Notes: generated from the letters alone by a model not told the origin. A DNA stretch of 64,000 bases from an uncultured Clostridia bacterium (GCA_944377485.1 CALWFB010000005.1:12236-76235), one strand, 5' to 3'. Shown: positions 39,308 through 63,834, counted from the first letter of the stretch. Program-made: numbers and translations.

Positions 39308-40078
39308 ATGGATGATATAAATAAAATTATTGGCAAAAATTTATTAATTCTAAGAAAAAATGCAAAACTTACTCAAATGGAACTTGCCGAACGATTTAAT
39401 TATTCTGACAAGACAATTTCTAAATGGGAATCTGGAGAATCTTTGCCAAATATTGAAATTTTGTATGAGTTGGCAAAATTTTATAATACTACATTAGATG
39501 CTTTAACTGTTGAAAATGATATAATTGCCACTACTGAAAATAACAAACAAAAAGATAAGATGTTTCCTACCAAACTGATTATCACCCTGCTTGCTGTCAG
39601 TGCCGTTTGGTTGCTCGCCACAGTACTATTTGTCACATTTAAGATAGTTTATTCTCACAATTATCCTCTACTTTTCTTATGGGCTGTGCCGATTTCATGT
39701 ATAGTTCTAATCATATTTAATAGTATTTGGGGGAAATATTATTATTTATTTGCAATTCTATCGGTGCTTATTTGGAGCACTTTGGCATGTATTCATCTAC
39801 AACTAATTCAATATAATATTTGGATAATATATATTTTAGGCATTCCTCTTCAAGTTGCAATTATTCTTTGGGCTGCATTGATTAAGAAGCCAAGAAGTAG
39901 CAAGAAAAGGAAGAAAAAACAAGATACTTTAAATAAAGAAGAAATTAAAAAATCAAAAAAAGATAAAAAGCATATTGAGAAAAATAATGAGACTATAAAC
40001 GGCAATATTTCAAATTTACAATTCGAAACTAAACCAGATAATTTCAACAATAGCACAAATGAAAAAACGGACATGTAG
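39308..40078 (+). CDS. membrane-anchored XRE-family HTH protein with Lys-rich tail
   Basis: N-terminal Cro/C1 HTH (LRKNAKLTQMELAERFNYSDKTISKWESGESLPNIEILYELAKFYNTTLDAL), four predicted TM helices and a KKRKKKQ-rich C-terminus. Confidence 0.8.
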   Translation: MDDINKIIGKNLLILRKNAKLTQMELAERFNYSDKTISKWESGESLPNIEILYELAKFYNTTLDALTVENDIIATTENNKQKDKMFPTKLIITLLAVSAVWLLATVLFVTFKIVYSHNYPLLFLWAVPISCIVLIIFNSIWGKYYYLFAILSVLIWSTLACIHLQLIQYNIWIIYILGIPLQVAIILWAALIKKPRSSKKRKKKQDTLNKEEIKKSKKDKKHIEKNNETINGNISNLQFETKPDNFNNSTNEKTDM

Positions 40079-44259: not shown

Positions 44260-45051
44260 TTATAAATCCTTTAACTTCGTTGTAAGAGGATTTGAAATAG
44301 CCTTTTCTATAATGAAATCTTCATCTATATATTTTTGTTCCTTTGTATTACAATAAAAGATTGTATAATGATTTCTTTTAATTATTTTAATTAAATCATA
44401 CAAATTTTTATTTTCATCAACTTTTAGAATTATCACCTTTTCTATTGATTTTTTTGACATATGCTTAAAAATCGATAAAGTTGGTTTATTGTTTGGACGT
44501 GAAGACAAAAAGAAGATTAGCATTATTAAATAAAACCAATTTATTATATGAAATACACTTATAATAAACAATATTAAAAATATAGTTGCAAAACTATAAC
44601 GAATTATAGCGTCAAAGATTCTATATTTTTTGTCAGTCTTAATGAATCCACGAAAGATTTTACCTCCATCAAGAGGATAAATTGGTAGCAAGTTAAAAAT
44701 TGCTAGGAATAAATTCGCATAACAAAATACATTCAAATAATTATATAAAGCAGGTACTAACCAATATAATGCCATACATAAAAGGCAAATAAACAAATTT
44801 AATAATGGACCAGCAATGTTTATAGCAAAACTATCCTTGTCCGATATGTCATCGTTTAAATTTAGTGACATACCAAAAATATCAAATTTAAATTGTTTCA
44901 AAGTATAACCACGTTTGCTAGCAACAAATAAATGTGCCATTTCATGCAAAAATAGTGCCAGCAAATAGTTGAACATTATCAAAATCTTATTGAAAAATAG
45001 ACATAAAAATATTAAAAATATTACACTTGGTCCTATTTTTATCTTTTTCAT
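44260..45051 (-). CDS. M50 site-2 metalloprotease, SpoIVFB-like
   Basis: HEMAHL (HExxH) in a TM helix and NLLPIYPLDGG, with a C-terminal soluble domain. Located next to rplU, as spoIVFB is in Bacillus. Confidence 0.8.
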   Translation of the reverse strand: MKKIKIGPSVIFLIFLCLFFNKILIMFNYLLALFLHEMAHLFVASKRGYTLKQFKFDIFGMSLNLNDDISDKDSFAINIAGPLLNLFICLLCMALYWLVPALYNYLNVFCYANLFLAIFNLLPIYPLDGGKIFRGFIKTDKKYRIFDAIIRYSFATIFLILFIISVFHIINWFYLIMLIFFLSSRPNNKPTLSIFKHMSKKSIEKVIILKVDENKNLYDLIKIIKRNHYTIFYCNTKEQKYIDEDFIIEKAISNPLTTKLKDL

Positions 45052-56476: not shown

Positions 56477-56768
56477 ATTGTTATTATACCACAATTTGAA
56501 TTAAAAACAAAACATAAATTAAATATATTGTCACAATATAAAATATTGTTTTCAACTTAAAATGATATTGTAAAACATTTGTATTTTATAAATTATTTGT
56601 AAAAACTCCTTGCCAAAATTAAAAATTTATTGTATACTATAAAAGTACTTATACGAATTAATGCTCGATTATCTTTCTTCCTACTTCGAACTTTGTTCTT
56701 GTAGGGACCCGTCTTGTGCTTTGATTTTATAAGCATGTTGACGAAATTGTTTATCTTAATCAAATTAT

Positions 56769-56793
56769 GCCGGTGTGGCGAAATGGCAGACGC
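56769..56793 (+). pseudogene. orphan 5' fragment (acceptor 5' strand plus D-arm, 25 nt) of tRNA-Leu
   Basis: Identical to 56955-56979. Identity stops exactly at the D-stem / anticodon-stem junction. Confidence 0.85.
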
Positions 56794-56954
56794 TCGTCCC
56801 AATCTGCACCTTTGTTAGATTGTTCGCTACGCTCGCAATTCTAATTTAGTTTGATTGCTCCTCTTCCTACTTCGAACTTCGTTCTCGTAGGGACCCGTCT
56901 TGTGCTTTGATTTTATAAGCATGTTGACGAAATTATTTATCTTAATCAAATTAT
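56794..56954. other. 161-nt element between the tRNA-Leu fragment and the intact tRNA-Leu; homologous to 32768-32930
   Basis: It has the same block order and nearly the same block offsets as the 5S-locus element. Details are given in the findings. Confidence 0.6.
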
Positions 56955-57040
56955 GCCGGTGTGGCGAAATGGCAGACGCACAAGACTCAAAATCTTGCGA
57001 GGGCAACCTCATGTCGGTTCGACCCCGACCACCGGCACCA
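56955..57040 (+). tRNA. tRNA-Leu (anticodon CAA), class II with long variable arm, CCA encoded
   Basis: Acceptor GCCGGTG/CACCGGC; D-arm GCG-AAATGGCAGA-CGC; anticodon arm CAAGA-CTCAAAA-TCTTG; variable arm; T-arm GTCGG-TTCGACC-CCGAC; then ACCA. Confidence 0.92.
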
Positions 57041-57212
57041 TTAAAAAATACCTATTTTATAGCACTTTTATTAACTTTTAACATTTTAAAACATAGTTGA
57101 TATTTTATTAATTGTTTATTTTGACCCCATTCTTCATACAAAAAACTAGCACATGGCTAGTTTTTTATTATTTATAAGTTAAATTTCTAATTCTGAATAT
57201 TTTATTTGAATA

Positions 57213-57680
57213 TTATAAATATGGAAAAACTATTTTAAATACTAACACTGCAAATATATAACTTAATAACATGCCTATTGCCAAAAACAATACTGAAACT
57301 ATAATTTTGAAATATATTTTATCAAATTGTCTAATTAATAACAAATTAATCGCACCTAAAAATCCTCCAATCACTCCTCCTACTAAGCCGAACATTATAC
57401 ATGGAATAAATACAATGATTGACAAAACAATTTCATACCATGTCAGTCTTCTTTCTAATTCAATTTCATTTCCAAACATGGTAATTGTTGTTCCCGAAAA
57501 CAAATTTCCTTTGATTTTAAATTGTTCACTAATTTCCCCATTTTTATATTCATATAGATTGCGATTGATTTTTGTGAGAATAATGCCGTCATACTTTATG
57601 GTTCGCCTGCCTGTCCAAATGTTTTCATCATAAACCAATACTTTATTCTGAGTCTTTTCATTATTAATTATTTTTCTCAT
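57213..57680 (-). CDS. hypothetical membrane protein
   Basis: 155 aa: a soluble N-terminal half followed by three hydrophobic helices. Its start overlaps the upstream giant gene by 17 nt. Confidence 0.55.
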   Translation of the reverse strand: MRKIINNEKTQNKVLVYDENIWTGRRTIKYDGIILTKINRNLYEYKNGEISEQFKIKGNLFSGTTITMFGNEIELERRLTWYEIVLSIIVFIPCIMFGLVGGVIGGFLGAINLLLIRQFDKIYFKIIVSVLFLAIGMLLSYIFAVLVFKIVFPYL

Positions 57681-60600
57681 TTTGTTCTCCTATAAGAGTT
57701 GGACTTTTATCTGTATACAAATTCCAAATAGCATTATCCCAATTTGACATGCAATATTCATAAATTGTATTTGCACTAGCAGAAATTCCATTGGTTTGCA
57801 CATCATCTATACCGACAACGTCATTAGTTTCGGCATAATAGCAATTTTCAAAATTATCATAAATTTCATTCACAAATGTATAATAAGTGACCGATGCTTG
57901 CCTGTCTCTTATTTGATTGTAATTTACAGAACAAATTGCAAAACAATCTTGTACGGTTGAATTATATGCGAATGCCACTACATCCAATTGTTCTATTGTG
58001 TATTCGGCATTTATTGTAATTTCAGATTCAGAATAACAATTTTTCACATCGCTATTTGCAGAAAATCCTGCAATATAAGATTTTACCAAATCAGGTGCAT
58101 AATAATATTGGTCTGACAAATTTACATTCATGCTTGTCTTTGAATAACAATTCTCTATTGTGCCGCCACTGCCTGAAAAGCCTGACAATGACAATTCTAA
58201 ATCTTCCAAATATGAACTTGCACAAACTTCAACATACATAGTTAAATCTGCACTACATTTACTAATTTTTGTACTCACTGGATTACCAATAAATCCACCA
58301 ATACTGAAACTATAATAATATGAATGTCTAGCATTTAAGATACCTTGTATATGACAATTCTCTATTGTACTGTTGAGTGCATGTCCTATTAAAGCACCAA
58401 TATCTTCTCCTCGTGAAGTATTAAATTCTAAATTCACATTGACAAATGACACATTCTTTATTGTGGCACTATTGATATTTCCAAAAATACCTGAACTACC
58501 ATCTCTCAAACTATTTCTAGATTCTGTTGATAGATTTGAAATGATATGATTGTTTCCCTCAAAAGTTCCTGTGAATTCATATCCTGTATAATGATTGTTT
58601 AAACCTATACTTGAAGTTAGTAGGTGCCCCTGCATATCAATATCATTTTCCAATGAAATGTTTTTTGTCCAATATTCATTGTTTGTTGTCAATTCGCTAA
58701 ATGCTTGTGGAGTAGTAATAAGGACTGTTCCATCTTCATCTTCTAATATTTTGTATACAGCGGTTAGCTTAATATCTCCATGACTGCCTTTTACAATTGT
58801 ATAACTTGAATATTTACTATTAATATCATCTGTATACCAACCCACAAATTCACAACCTGGTTTCTCAGGATTAGTCACTTTAAATGATTCAGTTTCAAAA
58901 TTATATGTAGTTATATTAGGTGAAAAAACTGTACCTCCATTAAGAACATACGTAATTGTGTAATCAATAGGAGTATATTTTGCATATAGAGTGACTTCTC
59001 CAACATTTCCCTTAGGTATACTTGTCACTTTTTCGCCAGTAAAATCAGCATTGTCATACCAACCGTCAAAAGTATAATAGTTTTTAGTTGGTGTCACATC
59101 AATGTTATGTCTATCCAAAATTGTATAATATTTATCCTCCTCTGATAGAGTCAATTGACCGCCATCAAGTTGATAATTAATATTATATTTTGTAGCGCTG
59201 AATTTTGCATAAAGAGTTAAATTTCTACACATAGTTGGCAGAATTTTATCCACACGATTTGAATAATATTCTGAATCGTACCAACCTTCAAAAGTGAATC
59301 CATATTTAGTCGCCTCCAAAAGAGTGAAAGGTTCTGATAAAACACTATAAGTTTTAATATTAGCCGAATTGTTTACTCCACCATCTAAATAATAAACGAC
59401 AGTGAAATCAATAGGAGACCATATCGCATAAAAAGTAATTGTTCTCTCAGTGTCTGTTAAATTAAACACCTCTTGCCCATCGCTGAAAGTGCTACCATTA
59501 TATGACCAACCTAAAAATTCATAGCCTGCTTTTTCATATTCGTTAAGTAGTAAATTTGCTTTTTCATTATATTTGATTAACAAATTGTCCATTGTCGTAT
59601 TATTTGCTCCATTGCCATCAAAGACAACTGTGTAAATCAAAACGTCCCATTGTGCTTTTAAAACAATTTCATTTTTATCATCACTTGTTAAATTATTAAC
59701 AAATTCTTCATCTGTAAAAGTCTGACCGTTATAAATCCAGTTTTTGAACATATATCCAGATTTTTTAAACAAACATTTATTGAGATTTTGTCCCATGGAA
59801 TATGTGAATTCTTGCTTCTCCATACTGCCAAATCCACCGTTGGCATCAAAGGTAATAGTATAAGTGATAGGAGTTAGTTTTACATATAATGATATTGATT
59901 CTTCAATAGGTTGATTTACATCAAACGGCTCAATGAAACTTGAATCTAGATAATAGCCTCCAAAAATATATCCTGTTTTTATGTAATTTTCTAAACGTTT
60001 ACCTTTATAAATTTCTTCAATTTCTAATAATGATGAATTTTCATCATAGATATAAACATCTAAAAAGTTCTCAAAATATTCTTTAAGTGGTAAATTTATA
60101 TCTCTTTTTATGTCCTTAATTTTATTAATCGGAATTGCCATATTCATATAATCAACCATGCCGTCAGTTAGCATTAAGGTTGTAATTCCTATTACTTTAC
60201 CTTCTTCGTTTACTAGCACTCCACCACTGTTTCCATGTGTCATATCAACTGTCGTTTGTATATAATTGTTGCCTTCATAAGTATAAGAGGTTTTTGAAAT
60301 AATTCCTTGTGTAAATGTACTATTGGCACTCCCCAATTCAAATGATTCTGGATAGCCAATCGCATAGACAGTGTCTCCAACAGAAATTTTATTGCTATCG
60401 CCTAATCTAACTGATTGTGAATGTTTGATATCTATTTGTATTATTGCCACATCTAAATTTTCATCACAACCAACAATACTTTTTATCTTATAAGTTTTAC
60501 CATTGTTCAGTTGAACTTCTCCACTGGTTGAATTTTTGATTACATGATAATTTGTCACCGCCAAGCCAGAATCATTTATAAAGAACCCAGACCCTGCCAG

Positions 60601-61056
60601 TTTTTCCGTAGGAGTTTGTGCTGTAATACAGAAAACTGATGGGTCTACCATTTTATAAATTTTACTGCTTGAATATTTGACAGGAATCAAAAATGCACAT
60701 AGAGCGAGAACTACCACTATTGCACTCAATGCTGCAATAAAATACCAAGGTTTTGATTGTAAAAAATTTGTTTTAATATTTACTAATTCTTCTTTAACTG
60801 TTTCATTATTATTTTTATTTACAATTTTTGAACCATTAGCAATTTCAAAGAATTCTGTCAATGTAATGCCAAATACTTTTGACAAGTTCTCAAGAGTATC
60901 CAAACTTGGTTCAGACAAATCATTTTCCCATTTTGATATCGCTTGATAAGATATGTTCAGTTTTTTCCCAAGTTGTTCTTGCGTTAACCCTTTTTCTTTT
61001 CGCAATTTTGCTATTGTTTTTCCATACTTTTTCAAGGTTCTTCTCCTTTTCGACAT
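57664..61056 (-). CDS. multidomain protein: XRE HTH, TM helix, trypsin-like serine protease, Listeria-Bacteroides (Flg_new) repeats, GLUG-like repeat region
   Basis: HTH: LRKEKGLTQEQLGKKLNISYQAISKWEN. TM: WYFIAALSAIVVVLALCAFLIPV. Protease: TNYHVI, DVAIIQI, GNSGGVL. Five to six repeats of the Y-x-I/V-x-F/Y-x-x-NGG...GY-x-F-x-GW type. The C-terminal region has repeated xGxxxG...I-x-N-C motifs. Confidence 0.85.
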   Translation of the reverse strand: MSKRRRTLKKYGKTIAKLRKEKGLTQEQLGKKLNISYQAISKWENDLSEPSLDTLENLSKVFGITLTEFFEIANGSKIVNKNNNETVKEELVNIKTNFLQSKPWYFIAALSAIVVVLALCAFLIPVKYSSSKIYKMVDPSVFCITAQTPTEKLAGSGFFINDSGLAVTNYHVIKNSTSGEVQLNNGKTYKIKSIVGCDENLDVAIIQIDIKHSQSVRLGDSNKISVGDTVYAIGYPESFELGSANSTFTQGIISKTSYTYEGNNYIQTTVDMTHGNSGGVLVNEEGKVIGITTLMLTDGMVDYMNMAIPINKIKDIKRDINLPLKEYFENFLDVYIYDENSSLLEIEEIYKGKRLENYIKTGYIFGGYYLDSSFIEPFDVNQPIEESISLYVKLTPITYTITFDANGGFGSMEKQEFTYSMGQNLNKCLFKKSGYMFKNWIYNGQTFTDEEFVNNLTSDDKNEIVLKAQWDVLIYTVVFDGNGANNTTMDNLLIKYNEKANLLLNEYEKAGYEFLGWSYNGSTFSDGQEVFNLTDTERTITFYAIWSPIDFTVVYYLDGGVNNSANIKTYSVLSEPFTLLEATKYGFTFEGWYDSEYYSNRVDKILPTMCRNLTLYAKFSATKYNINYQLDGGQLTLSEEDKYYTILDRHNIDVTPTKNYYTFDGWYDNADFTGEKVTSIPKGNVGEVTLYAKYTPIDYTITYVLNGGTVFSPNITTYNFETESFKVTNPEKPGCEFVGWYTDDINSKYSSYTIVKGSHGDIKLTAVYKILEDEDGTVLITTPQAFSELTTNNEYWTKNISLENDIDMQGHLLTSSIGLNNHYTGYEFTGTFEGNNHIISNLSTESRNSLRDGSSGIFGNINSATIKNVSFVNVNLEFNTSRGEDIGALIGHALNSTIENCHIQGILNARHSYYYSFSIGGFIGNPVSTKISKCSADLTMYVEVCASSYLEDLELSLSGFSGSGGTIENCYSKTSMNVNLSDQYYYAPDLVKSYIAGFSANSDVKNCYSESEITINAEYTIEQLDVVAFAYNSTVQDCFAICSVNYNQIRDRQASVTYYTFVNEIYDNFENCYYAETNDVVGIDDVQTNGISASANTIYEYCMSNWDNAIWNLYTDKSPTLIGEQNEKNN

Positions 61057-61253
61057 TTACATTATAGCATGCGAATATCAAAAATTTAATATTTTTTTCT
61101 CAACTAACGGTTGAATTTCACCCAATTTTGTTGAATTTATCAATATTTTAATAATCTTAATAATATTTTATACAAATAATTTAACATATTGTTATCAATT
61201 TTATTTTATATTACCTTTTATTACTTATTGATTTGAACCTTATATGAAATCTA

Positions 61254-62492
61254 CTAATCCTCACTAATTTCTCGATTCTCTGAATTTTGAGATTTATTAT
61301 TTTTATTTTTTACTATCAATTTCCCATCTACAATTTTATATTTCATAAATCTTATAAGAATATATGCTACAAACAAAACAATGCTCTGTGAAATCCTTCC
61401 AATATCCGTACAATATGGTGACATAACAAATACTGAAAGTATTGTCCATAATACCATCGTAAAAATATTTAATGTAGTATTAAGCGCAGGAGAGTATTCA
61501 ATCTGAGTATAAATCCCTAAAATTATAGCATATGTATCCATCATCATATCTAAAACTTGGAATAACAAATAAACAACCACAATAGGAATAGAAACATCAA
61601 TAAAAGCAACCAATATAAAAGTCATGATAACACTCGATAATGCTAAAATAATAGTATAAAAATATGCATTACGCATTTCTTTTTTGTAATTATATCTATT
61701 CTTTGCGATATCAACTTTTGCCACTGTATCACGTGCCGTCAACATGTCCCACTGCGTGTCAGTGCAAAGTGCAACCAAGTTTAAAGCAAGCAAATACTCC
61801 TCGCCCGCCTGAAAAGCATTTCTATAACCAAAAGTATAAATTACAAACATAAAAAGTGCATTGATAATATTACTAGATTCATAGCGTAAATTTTTAAAAA
61901 ATTTGAAATCAATTTTAAACTTTTCAAACTGCCAAATGTATAAAGAAACTACGTATATTAACATTATGCCAAGAGTAATCAACAATGCAACAAAGGTATT
62001 TGGAATACACGCACATAGCAAAATTACAATTAAAAAATTGATAATGTTAAAACTGAATAGATGAATATTTGCCAGTTTTTCTTTATCTTCAAAATATAGT
62101 TTTTCTATAATAAATTGCACTAATGTTTGTTCAAATAATTGTGCTATCCCATAAATTACATAGATTTTGTAAAAGTCAATATTTTGACCAAAAAATGTGA
62201 TATATTCATCTATAAATATTATTGGCAAAGAAAATATAATTATTGAAAAAATTGTGCCCCAAAGAATGCTATTCCAAACTGCGTTTTTATCATGTTCTTT
62301 CTCTTTTCGGATATTTGCGCCAGAGCCAAAAAAACAGCGAAATATTATCCAGACAAATTGAAATGCATAACAAATTGAAAATACATTTGCTATCCTGTCA
62401 TCTCCTAATACAAAAGAAAGAATAATCCACGATAGAACGGGGATTATTGAGTATATAAATAGGCCACTTCCAATGCTAAATAGACGTTTCAT
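61254..62492 (-). CDS. polytopic membrane protein (paralog A; flippase/MOP-like topology, family not verified)
   Basis: 412 aa with about 12 TM helices. Roughly 65-70% identical by eye to the adjacent 410-aa protein. Confidence 0.6.
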   Translation of the reverse strand: MKRLFSIGSGLFIYSIIPVLSWIILSFVLGDDRIANVFSICYAFQFVWIIFRCFFGSGANIRKEKEHDKNAVWNSILWGTIFSIIIFSLPIIFIDEYITFFGQNIDFYKIYVIYGIAQLFEQTLVQFIIEKLYFEDKEKLANIHLFSFNIINFLIVILLCACIPNTFVALLITLGIMLIYVVSLYIWQFEKFKIDFKFFKNLRYESSNIINALFMFVIYTFGYRNAFQAGEEYLLALNLVALCTDTQWDMLTARDTVAKVDIAKNRYNYKKEMRNAYFYTIILALSSVIMTFILVAFIDVSIPIVVVYLLFQVLDMMMDTYAIILGIYTQIEYSPALNTTLNIFTMVLWTILSVFVMSPYCTDIGRISQSIVLFVAYILIRFMKYKIVDGKLIVKNKNNKSQNSENREISED

Positions 62493-62601: not shown

Positions 62602-63834
62602 TTAGTTTTTATCTTGATTTTTTGTTTGAATTTTACCATGTAAATTCTCTTTAACAATCAATTTGTTTTCAACTACTTTATATTTAGAAAATCTTATTAC
62701 ACTAAATGAAATAAATAACATTACACTTTGACTTATTTGTCCAATATCCGTACAATAAGGTGACAATATTAATAGTGATAAAATAGTTCTAATTATCATG
62801 GTAGATAAATTAAGCACTGTATTAATAATTGGTGAATATTCAATCTGGGTATAAATTGATAATATAGAAGTATATGTATCCAAAAACATTCCTATTATTT
62901 GAAAACTTAAATAAGTGATAAGCAATTTTGCAGAAACATTTATAAATGACACCAGTATTAATGACATTATAACGCTTGATAAACCAACTATAATTGTAAA
63001 TATATATGCTTTTTTTATTTCGGAAGCATAATTATATCTATTTTTAGATATATCAACTTTCGCCACAATATCATAAGCAGTCAGCATATCCCACTGTGCA
63101 TCTGTACATAGAGCCACAATATTCAGTGCTAAAAGATATTCTTCCCCTGCACTAAATGCATTTCTATATCCGAATAAATAAATTATTAGCATAAAAAGCG
63201 CATTGAACAAATTCGCAGACTCATATTTTATGTTTTTAAAAAATTTGAAATCAATTTTAAATTTTTGAAATTGCCAAACATACAGACATATTACATAAAT
63301 CAATAATACAGCCAATGTGGCAATCAATGCGATAAAAGTATTTTTAATACAAGCACATAATATAATAAGAATCAAAAAATTTAAAATATTGAACACAAAA
63401 ACATGAATATTTGCTAATTTTTCTTTATCTTCAAAGTATAATTTTTCGATTATAAATTGTAAGAGAGTTTGAACAAATAACTGTGTAATACCATATATGA
63501 CATATATTCTATAAAATTCTGCATCCTGTCCGAAAAAATTTATATATTTGTCTACAAATATTATAGGAATTGAAAACACAATAATCGCAAAAATTGTTCC
63601 CCAAAAAATTCCATTCCATGTTGCATTATTATCGTGTTCTTTTTCCTTTCTAATGTTGGCACCTGAACCGAACAGACATTTAAATATCGACCAAACAAAT
63701 TGAATTGCATAGCAAATAGAAAATACATTTGCTATCCTACTATCGTCTAATATAAATGAAAGAACTACCCATGAAAGAATTGGGATAATTGAATATATGA
63801 ATAATGAACTTCCTATTCCAAATAATCGTTTCAT
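62602..63834 (-). CDS. polytopic membrane protein (paralog B)
   Basis: 410 aa, co-linear with 61254-62492 (MKRLF.IGS.LFIYSIIP.LSW..LSF.L.D.RIANVFSICYA.QFVW...). Confidence 0.6.
   Translation of the reverse strand: MKRLFGIGSSLFIYSIIPILSWVVLSFILDDSRIANVFSICYAIQFVWSIFKCLFGSGANIRKEKEHDNNATWNGIFWGTIFAIIVFSIPIIFVDKYINFFGQDAEFYRIYVIYGITQLFVQTLLQFIIEKLYFEDKEKLANIHVFVFNILNFLILIILCACIKNTFIALIATLAVLLIYVICLYVWQFQKFKIDFKFFKNIKYESANLFNALFMLIIYLFGYRNAFSAGEEYLLALNIVALCTDAQWDMLTAYDIVAKVDISKNRYNYASEIKKAYIFTIIVGLSSVIMSLILVSFINVSAKLLITYLSFQIIGMFLDTYTSILSIYTQIEYSPIINTVLNLSTMIIRTILSLLILSPYCTDIGQISQSVMLFISFSVIRFSKYKVVENKLIVKENLHGKIQTKNQDKN

Follow-up and report, generated by a model that had tools for sequence, protein, structure and literature searches.

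The subject of this study is a two-gene operon on the minus strand of a 64,000-nucleotide stretch of DNA from an uncultured Clostridia bacterium (GCA_944377485.1, CALWFB010000005.1:12236-76235), this whole stretch being called here the window, with all positions counted from its first letter. The operon encodes a large protein that carries in one chain an XRE-type helix-turn-helix (HTH), a transmembrane (TM) helix, a serine protease core, surface-protein repeats and a C-terminal beta-helix, followed by a small membrane protein. In our reading, which is given a probability of about 0.6, the two genes would encode an autoregulated transmembrane transcription regulator (TTR), i.e., a one-component system bound to the membrane, and its small intramembrane partner. 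The features of the locus, in the direction of transcription, are the following:

61130..61135, minus strand: upstream direct half-site TTCAAC, at about -81..-76 relative to the inferred transcription start site (TSS) and 14-15 nt 5' of the palindrome
61099..61115, minus strand: candidate operator palindrome TTCAAC-cgtta-GTTGAG, 32 nt 5' of the -10 hexamer
61061..61069, minus strand: extended -10 TGcTATAAT, read from the sequence
61042..61047, minus strand: Shine-Dalgarno sequence AGGAGA of the large gene, 6 nt 5' of the TTG at 61035
57664..61056, minus strand: large open reading frame (ORF), 1130 aa, with an unbroken reading frame
57664..61035, minus strand: large gene as it would run from the TTG, encoding the membrane-tethered HTH-protease-repeat-GLUG protein of 1123 aa
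60850..61014, minus strand: cytoplasmic XRE-type HTH, residues 15-69 (Pfam HTH_3, E 2e-18)
60679..60747, minus strand: single TM helix, residues 104-126, with a conserved K-x-K-P-W-Y just before it
60097..60675, minus strand: extracytoplasmic HtrA-type serine protease core, residues ~128-320, with His171, Asp202 and Ser277
58759..60012, minus strand: six Listeria-Bacteroides (Flg_new / InlB B-repeat) repeats, residues ~349-766 (Pfam Flg_new, six stretches, E 3e-49)
57667..58710, minus strand: predicted C-terminal right-handed beta-helix of GLUG type, residues 783-1130 (AlphaFold2 (AF2) and Foldseek)
57686-57691, minus strand: Shine-Dalgarno sequence AGGAGA of the partner gene, inside the 3' end of the large gene
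57213..57680, minus strand: partner gene, 155 aa, with a beta domain (residues 2-76) and a two-helix membrane hairpin bearing an FGxxGGxxGG glycine zipper
57140..57166, no strand assigned: bidirectional terminator hairpin that ends the two-gene operon (gene-strand sequence aaaaaactagccatgtgctagtttttt; from a scan and from reading the sequence)

Residues of the large protein are numbered throughout from the ATG at 61056. At its N-terminus, the HTH scores 66.6 bits against a Pfam cut-off of 23, which provides the predicted DNA-binding domain expected of a TTR, and its nearest solved relatives in a PDB comparison are DNA-binding repressors (ImmR 7t8i, P22 C2, C.Esp1396I and DdrO). It is also the most conserved region of the protein family: its recognition helix reads S36-Y37-Q38-A-I-S41-K42-W-E, and residues Q26, Q38, S41, K42, W43 and E44 are nearly invariant. 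Residues 104-126 constitute the sole hydrophobic window in the 1130 aa (Kyte-Doolittle 19-residue mean 3.03), are kept in the family as the TM segment that a TTR likewise has, and include conserved small residues (A/G at 109, G/A at 111 and S at 118). Taken together, these topology signals show a predicted N-in/C-out orientation through a single TM helix, with the HTH head in the cytoplasm.

On the other side of the membrane, Trypsin_2 is matched at residues 155-291 (Pfam, E 8e-30), and both NCBIfam and PDB identify an HtrA/DegQ/DegS-type core (DegQ, 3pv2, E 7e-27), bearing out the proposal of an earlier note, made on this DNA from the sequence alone, that a Cro/C1 HTH is joined by a single TM helix to an extracellular chymotrypsin-fold protease. 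The residues of the S1C triad align to the catalytic residues of DegQ and to the corresponding columns of the family, and they are the same as those that the note had picked out by their contexts (NYHVI for His171, DVAIIQI for Asp202 and GNSGGV for Ser277), so that the catalytic residues are kept on alignment. From this intact triad, the protease of the window protein is predicted to be catalytically competent. The HtrA-model matches in NCBIfam end at around residue 320 and score far under the equivalog cut-offs, and neither Pfam nor NCBIfam matches in the large protein a PDZ domain, such as characterizes HtrA, DegP and DegS; judged by these profiles, only the core of the protein resembles HtrA. 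The six Flg_new stretches (C5:70994-72247 in the genome search, which equals 58759-60012 in the window) settle at the upper end of the five to six repeats counted earlier. The C-terminal 348 aa have no sequence relative in PDB, and for their predicted fold (AF2, pLDDT 89.7, pTM 0.91) Foldseek points to the GLUG beta-helix domain found in IgA1 proteases (E 4e-6 for 3n6z; 6xja and 7uvk as well; probability 1.00, TM-score ~0.5). This would give a structural footing to the GLUG-like repeats suspected before, whose Pfam Glug match at residues 885-903 stays just below the cut-off (19.9 against 20.5 bits). The domain is common to most family members, with the consensus F-G-x-F-D-G-N-G-H-x-I ... G-L-F-G. 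By their profile and fold matches, the B-repeats and the GLUG beta-helix are similar to those parts of Gram-positive surface proteases and adhesins that bind a substrate or the host.

The ORF of the second gene (57213..57680) shares positions 57664-57680 with the large ORF (57664..61056), i.e., the 17-nt overlap that had been reported for the 155-aa membrane protein. It belongs to no Pfam or NCBIfam family and has 51 detectable homologues, without a name. A hidden Markov model made from these homologues found it directly 3' of the large gene, overlapping it or separated from it by 17 nt at most, in 14 of 19 examined loci, and a divergent subgroup of the family keeps it at 27-30% identity. The coupled small protein that the note had pointed to is, on this conservation, a real, conserved and translationally coupled partner. 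Its AF2 model (pLDDT 88) consists of a seven-stranded beta domain (residues 2-76) and two helices (81-116 and 122-151), for which Foldseek gives no relative at E<=1e-3, the best being the FAIM N-terminal domain at E 0.087. The conserved features comprise E-x-F-W-T-G-K-R, L-T-W-Y-E at the start of helix 1, P93, F-G-x-x-G-G-x-x-G-G, R117 and S140. The protein lacks a signal peptide, and its first 83 residues carry a net charge of +3; the beta domain is therefore most likely cytoplasmic, and most likely shares its compartment with the HTH head and its tether. Within the membrane, the small residues of the regulator TM helix could pack on the glycine zipper of the partner.

The evidence that links this protein to DNA comes from the region upstream of the large gene, which was compared with those of its relatives' loci (19 loci examined overall, as above). 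The element TTCAAC-N14/15-TTCAAC-N5-GTTGAG (or variants of it), followed by an A-rich tract, is present in 14 orthologous promoters, including that of the window, whose proteins are only 35-75% identical in their N-terminal part and whose surrounding DNA is not alignable. The spacing between the end of the palindrome and TGnTATAAT is always 31-33 nt in these promoters, and the upstream half-site (TTCAAC, TTCCAC, TTCTAC or ATCAAC) is found in 13 of them, being absent from the promoter of L298. The earlier note had advised to look for the DNA target of the HTH in 61057-61253, and there the palindrome at 61099-61115 and the half-site at 61130-61135 now stand as a candidate. With a TSS assumed some 7 nt beyond the -10, the centre of the palindrome falls at about -53 and that of the third half-site at about -78; a position near -53 fits activation or interference with an UP-element better than occlusion of the core promoter.

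The distribution of the palindrome in whole genomes points in the same direction. In the window genome (G000), the exact 12-base pattern occurs in 4 copies, against ~0.1 expected, and the sole intergenic one is that of the large-gene promoter; no second promoter-proximal copy appears in it with up to 2 mismatches allowed. Five genomes whose family protein has Tyr at residue 37 of the recognition helix (5.7 Mb, G000 among them) hold 10 exact palindromes, 5 of which are family promoters and 5 lie inside coding sequence; the four genomes beyond G000 account for 6 of the exact copies, 4 of them at the family promoter. The control pattern, read backwards, gave 1 match in five genomes. In a genome with Ser37 (G155), the extra match to the palindrome is a terminator hairpin. 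A search for a regulon (exact and with up to 2 mismatches in G000, exact in five relatives' genomes) thus found no second promoter-proximal site and, since the palindrome is tied to the large gene alone among the places searched, autoregulation would be expected rather than a regulon. As an aside on these counts, an exact TTCAAC-N5-GTTGAG lies inside rpsK (ribosomal protein S11) in two genomes (G000, C4:44929; and L305, from G151 C116), a coincidence due to a conserved protein that inflates the genome-wide numbers of the motif.

The neighbouring signals of transcription and translation are conserved to a similar extent. TGnTATAAT (TGnTATACT in L302) is at the matching place in 13 of the 14 loci, the -10 region of L023 reading ctgTATACT, with the TG directly adjacent, and the Shine-Dalgarno sequence and the start codon follow 18-27 nt 3' of the -10 in the operator-bearing promoters. 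A consensus promoter scan, which does not score extended -10 elements, is uninformative for DNA so rich in AT, with 40 sites against 31 in shuffles, and it does not list TGcTATAAT because the -35 is weak. Of the two candidate start codons, the ATG at 61056 is only 4 nt 3' of the -10 hexamer, and the TTG at 61035 is the start position in 106 of 121 homologues. Given an ATG so near to the -10 and a TTG with both an AGGAGA and the homologues' starts on its side, the true start of the large gene is probably the TTG at 61035, and the protein is therefore probably of 1123 aa. A TTG or GTG instead of an ATG opens 10 of the 14 operator-bearing genes (the window at 61035, L021, L023, L133, L134, L135, L297, L298, L302 and L303), and these starts may reflect a deliberately weak translation initiation of the regulator.

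It had been proposed in the note that the DNA-binding domain could be regulated by proteolysis, with the logic of membrane-tethered transcription factors and the protease in cis. The first part has gained from the conserved operator-like palindrome, which keeps its distance to the -10 in 14 promoters; the second, regulation by the protease in cis, is not supported. In its full form, this explanation says that the ectodomain cuts its own or a neighbouring chain (site-1) and that a site-2 protease frees the HTH to work as a soluble repressor or activator, as a DegS-RseA-RseP-like cascade in one chain. It accords with the HtrA/DegS type of the protease and with the intact triad of the window protein and of 90 of the 121 aligned N-termini. 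Furthermore, M50 site-2-protease-like proteins are encoded in the genome (a 263-aa ORF in the window, 44260-45051, minus strand, and a 395-aa ORF on C3, 189 bits), so that release by proteolysis may occur in active members, although nothing found here supports it, and ImmR and DdrO, the nearest solved relatives of the HTH, are repressors inactivated by dedicated proteases. Nonetheless, 31 of the 121 members (~26%) miss one to three residues of the triad, and 30 of these 31 bear the HTH. In the tree, these pseudoproteases fall together into one half, a grouping that is weakly supported. The operator is kept at all 7 pseudoprotease loci examined (L022, L023, L156, L296, L298, L302 and L303) and the partner gene at 6 of them, L156 being without it. 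The HTH, whose mean pairwise identity is 55% overall, is even more conserved among the pseudoproteases (68%), in which the protease-like domain reaches only 42%. Since members without the triad keep the HTH, the operator and mostly the partner, catalysis cannot be the universal trigger and, judged from these alignments, the protease is dispensable for the core function of the family. There is a geometrical objection as well: the homology to the HtrA core begins ~5 residues past the TM helix, and the spacing between this helix and GSGFF is nearly constant (25-43 residues, median 29; the flexible cytoplasmic tether, in turn, spans 17-106 residues across the family), which sets the core right up against the membrane and leaves no exposed stalk for a site-1 cut. 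A released regulator would be compatible with the operator, but it needs extra steps, and we regard it as unlikely.

The preferred reading, in which the tethered head acts from the membrane, requires that this head, and not another protein, binds the palindrome. A way to approach it is provided by residue 37, the second residue of the recognition helix, which we take to be base-contacting from the alignment with P22 C2 and 434 repressor. Its natural variants and the arms of the palindrome are paired as follows:

Tyr37, all 8 loci: arms CAAC/GTTG (L133 reads CTCAAC)
Phe37, L297: TTCTAC/GTAGAG, a perfect palindrome with both arms altered
Phe37, L132: TTCTAC/GGTTAG
Ser37, L134 and L156: right arm GTAGAG
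Ser37, L296: right arm TTATAG
Ser37, L302: TTCAAC/GTTGAA, a Tyr-type operator

The half-sites shift with residue 37 in five of six lineages. The two Tyr-to-Phe lineages are independent, and so are, of each other, the three Tyr-to-Ser lineages of L134, L156 and L296 (independence being judged on a tree of the protease domain only). The subgroup with another recognition helix (xPQT, or xSQT then G) shows no TCAAC element. Three of its promoters (L130, L131 and L299, with the helix xPQT(V/I)SKWENG) share instead GAGAAA..TYGCY-N4-CGGT, ~20-35 nt 5' of a TTGCAA/TTGCCA -35; this may be the subgroup's own operator, although the shared word is not called so because three related sequences are too few. 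From the co-variation and the tie between operator and gene, it is probable that the HTH head of the large protein is what binds the palindrome.

Several observations weigh against this reading. A test set beforehand on a pair of sister proteins failed: L303 (Tyr37) has the canonical site, and L302 (Ser37) keeps a Tyr-type one where a shifted site was predicted. The promoters of L302 and L303 are nearly identical, so the change at residue 37 may be recent; the exception implies in any case that residue 37 is not a sufficient determinant of the arms. The co-variation sample is small and its sequences are related. The operator is missing at 5 of the 19 loci, the partner gene is missing at 5 as well (L130, L132, L156, L300 and L301), and the palindrome stands clear of the core promoter, with no overlap. 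Furthermore, searches of 7 further genomes of the same taxonomic family, 150 of the order and 398 others of the class did not reveal the protein family but only ordinary HtrA proteases, and this patchy distribution therefore suggests an accessory function, not a core one. Lastly, G000 encodes ~15 small soluble XRE HTH proteins, which are possible alternative binders of the palindrome.

These small proteins are at the centre of another explanation, according to which the large protein is a surface protease or adhesin whose HTH serves as a cytoplasmic anchor, as a protein-interaction module (RodZ-like) or as a non-specific DNA binder, the palindrome being the site of a soluble regulator. In favour of it, RodZ is a membrane-tethered protein with an XRE-like HTH able to bind protein instead of DNA, there are HTH-less relatives in which the same ectodomain simply follows an N-terminal anchor (P0099 and others), and the Ser37 exception of L302 speaks for it too. 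However, no conserved gene for another regulator was found beside the operon, whose flanks differ at every locus examined, and the palindrome goes with the large gene alone and varies with its recognition helix in most of the independent lineages. The best Pfam and PDB matches of the HTH are, moreover, DNA-binding HTH_3 repressors and not RodZ, whose HTH_25 and RodZ_C (DUF4115) are absent among the Pfam matches of the large protein. A separate binder is thus judged rather improbable.

The weakest of the alternatives, namely that the gene is in decay or that separate genes were joined by the assembly or by a frameshift, can practically be dismissed, given an unbroken frame, a base composition that is uniform along the large gene, a 98%-identical copy in 41 member sequences (P0001) and the same domain order in more than 250 protein clusters of independent assemblies, the last of which by itself argues that the large gene is no fusion artefact. 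These clusters with HTH_3, Trypsin_2 and Flg_new, all from gut or rumen Clostridia assemblies, were retrieved by a word-indexed search, and an exhaustive search of 1.84 billion proteins gave 197 representatives at 50% identity (E<=1e-30); together, they constitute the database survey that the earlier note had called for and uphold its single-polypeptide architecture. Among the 197 representatives there are short HTH-TM-protease proteins of 330-480 aa. Profile scans of genome contigs listed at least 6 full-length relatives among their matches, and a scan of metagenome contigs with the family alignment had only generic HtrA proteases among the matches listed. The only names found on the clusters are “InlB B-repeat-containing” or “trypsin-like peptidase domain-containing” protein, none of them functional, and they hide the regulator head. 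All six family-bearing genomes are very small, 1.0-1.4 Mb (G000 and G151-G155). That of the window (1.02 Mb, 98% complete) has one response regulator gene and five giant Flg_new surface proteins, the window protein and four others; with a single response regulator, the family may be one of the few routes from the surface to gene expression.

How would an autoregulated, membrane-bound regulator of this kind work? We propose that the HTH would bind the three TCAAC half-sites, i.e., the two of the 17-bp palindrome at 61099-61115 and the direct one two helical turns upstream, and that the bound head, placed just 5' of the A-tract and the extended -10, would determine from the membrane how its own operon is transcribed. 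What would be reported to the promoter is the state of the ectodomain (binding of a ligand or substrate, oligomerisation, or its loss), in such a way that the ectodomain might both act at the surface and signal its own state through the tethered head. The glycine-zipper hairpin of the partner would pack against the TM helix of the regulator, and its probably cytoplasmic beta domain could modulate the head or the tether. That HtrA cores form trimers and that the site comprises three half-sites is a suggestive match, but no more. Extending it, one may imagine a surface or envelope sensor free of kinase, sigma factor and release, in which trimerization of the HtrA-like ectodomain, be it an active or a dead protease, on its ligand or substrate would put three HTH heads on the three TCAAC half-sites, with the partner as an intramembrane clamp; we hold this more elaborate version to be quite doubtful. 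If it were true, an extracellular peptide or the contact with a host surface would be converted directly into the transcription of a surface-protein operon, and the protein would represent a new class of input domain for one-component signalling, in genomes of 1.0-1.4 Mb with almost no two-component systems.

TTRs as a class are already known; the protease ectodomain, the candidate operator and the partner appear to be the new elements here. TTRs occur widely, most often with an HTH as the DNA-binding domain, and 57% show no further recognisable domain; most are uncharacterised, and how they act while bound to the membrane is a question still to be answered (PMC10269533). That census leaves trypsin or peptidase ectodomains unmentioned, and our literature search turned up neither a TTR with a protease ectodomain nor the TCAAC operator nor the 155-aa partner. 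ToxR, TcpP, CadC and the BcrR of Enterococcus faecalis are like the window protein in having a cytoplasmic DNA-binding domain, TM segments and an extracytoplasmic part in one chain, with a presumed action on promoters from the membrane, and BcrR, a membrane-bound one-component activator in Firmicutes, shares with it also the N-terminal position of the HTH (PMC3968067). Unlike the XRE HTH of the window protein, the DNA-binding domains of ToxR, TcpP and CadC are winged helices of OmpR type, whereas BcrR spans the membrane with four TM helices and is devoid of an ectodomain. None of the four carries the protease, the B-repeats or the GLUG beta-helix, all three of which are predicted here and, in contrast to them, a candidate operator can be read in this family from comparative data alone.

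Other known systems resemble single aspects of the operon. The DegS-RseA-RseP cascade likewise has an HtrA-type core on one N-terminal TM helix, at the outer face of the membrane and linked to a transcriptional output; in it, however, the roles of protease, substrate and transcription factor fall to three separate proteins, the signal is sensed by a PDZ domain and the output is a sigma factor, whereas the window system consists of one chain without PDZ, its output would be an XRE HTH and a quarter of its family is catalytically dead. The pairs ToxR-ToxS, VtrA-VtrC and TcpP-TcpH are also formed by a tethered regulator followed by a small, translationally coupled and co-conserved membrane protein (PMC9214523, PMC11323476). 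Partners of the ToxS, VtrC and TcpH type have one TM segment and a periplasmic domain, lipocalin-like in the ToxR/ToxS type, that pairs with that of the regulator, and the window partner differs in its probably cytoplasmic beta domain and two-helix hairpin. The head is an XRE HTH_3 and the partner model has no significant fold match, and the likeness is one of logic, not of fold or topology. In LexA and lambda CI, ImmR-ImmA and DdrO-IrrE (ImmR being the closest solved relative of the HTH), an XRE-type HTH likewise works in connection with a protease, but these systems are soluble and use either a self-cleaving S24 peptidase with a Ser-Lys dyad in the compartment of the HTH (LexA and CI) or a dedicated metalloprotease that cuts the repressor; the window protein has no S24 domain, and a Trypsin_2/HtrA-like H-D-S protease of the S1C type is separated from its HTH by the TM helix and lies across the membrane. 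Finally, the beta-helix match and the six Flg_new repeats recall IgA1 proteases of GLUG/G5 type and InlB B-repeat surface proteins, which are secreted or wall-anchored and have signal peptides and zinc-metalloprotease domains, and none of which starts with a cytoplasmic HTH. The family offers an unusually complete case for testing: a defined head, a candidate operator with natural specificity variants (Tyr, Phe or Ser37 against CAAC or CTAC), a dedicated partner and an ectodomain that has a recognisable biochemical activity as well as natural catalytically dead versions.

Some further features of the window and its genome deserve mention. Directly 5' of the operon there are two tandem paralogous genes for polytopic membrane proteins of ~410 aa (61254-62492 and 62602-63834, minus strand), with no significant Pfam or NCBIfam family; they were ruled out as part of the module, since they are absent from every other family locus examined. 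A second candidate membrane-bound regulator lies at 39308-40078 (plus strand), a protein of 256 aa with an N-terminal HTH_3 (E 1e-13), some four hydrophobic helices and a tail rich in lysine. It is BcrR-like, the HTH of BcrR being of XRE type. The other Trypsin_2 protein of G000 is a 534-aa lipoprotein (C6:28137-29741; L010 928-2532) with an LLFGGC lipobox, in which a duplicated N-terminal repeat of 35 residues, VY(I/V)TRIEKTET(V/I)G(S/T)TDTYT(I/V)YYSDNTTSNFT(V/I)EN, precedes the HtrA-like core. Beyond the 3' end of the operon, a tRNA-Leu(CAA) is encoded at 56955-57040 (plus strand), and a stretch of ~120 nt with its 5' end is repeated ~230 nt away (region 56593-57040), as seen from two ORF translations that have a peptide of 30 residues in common.

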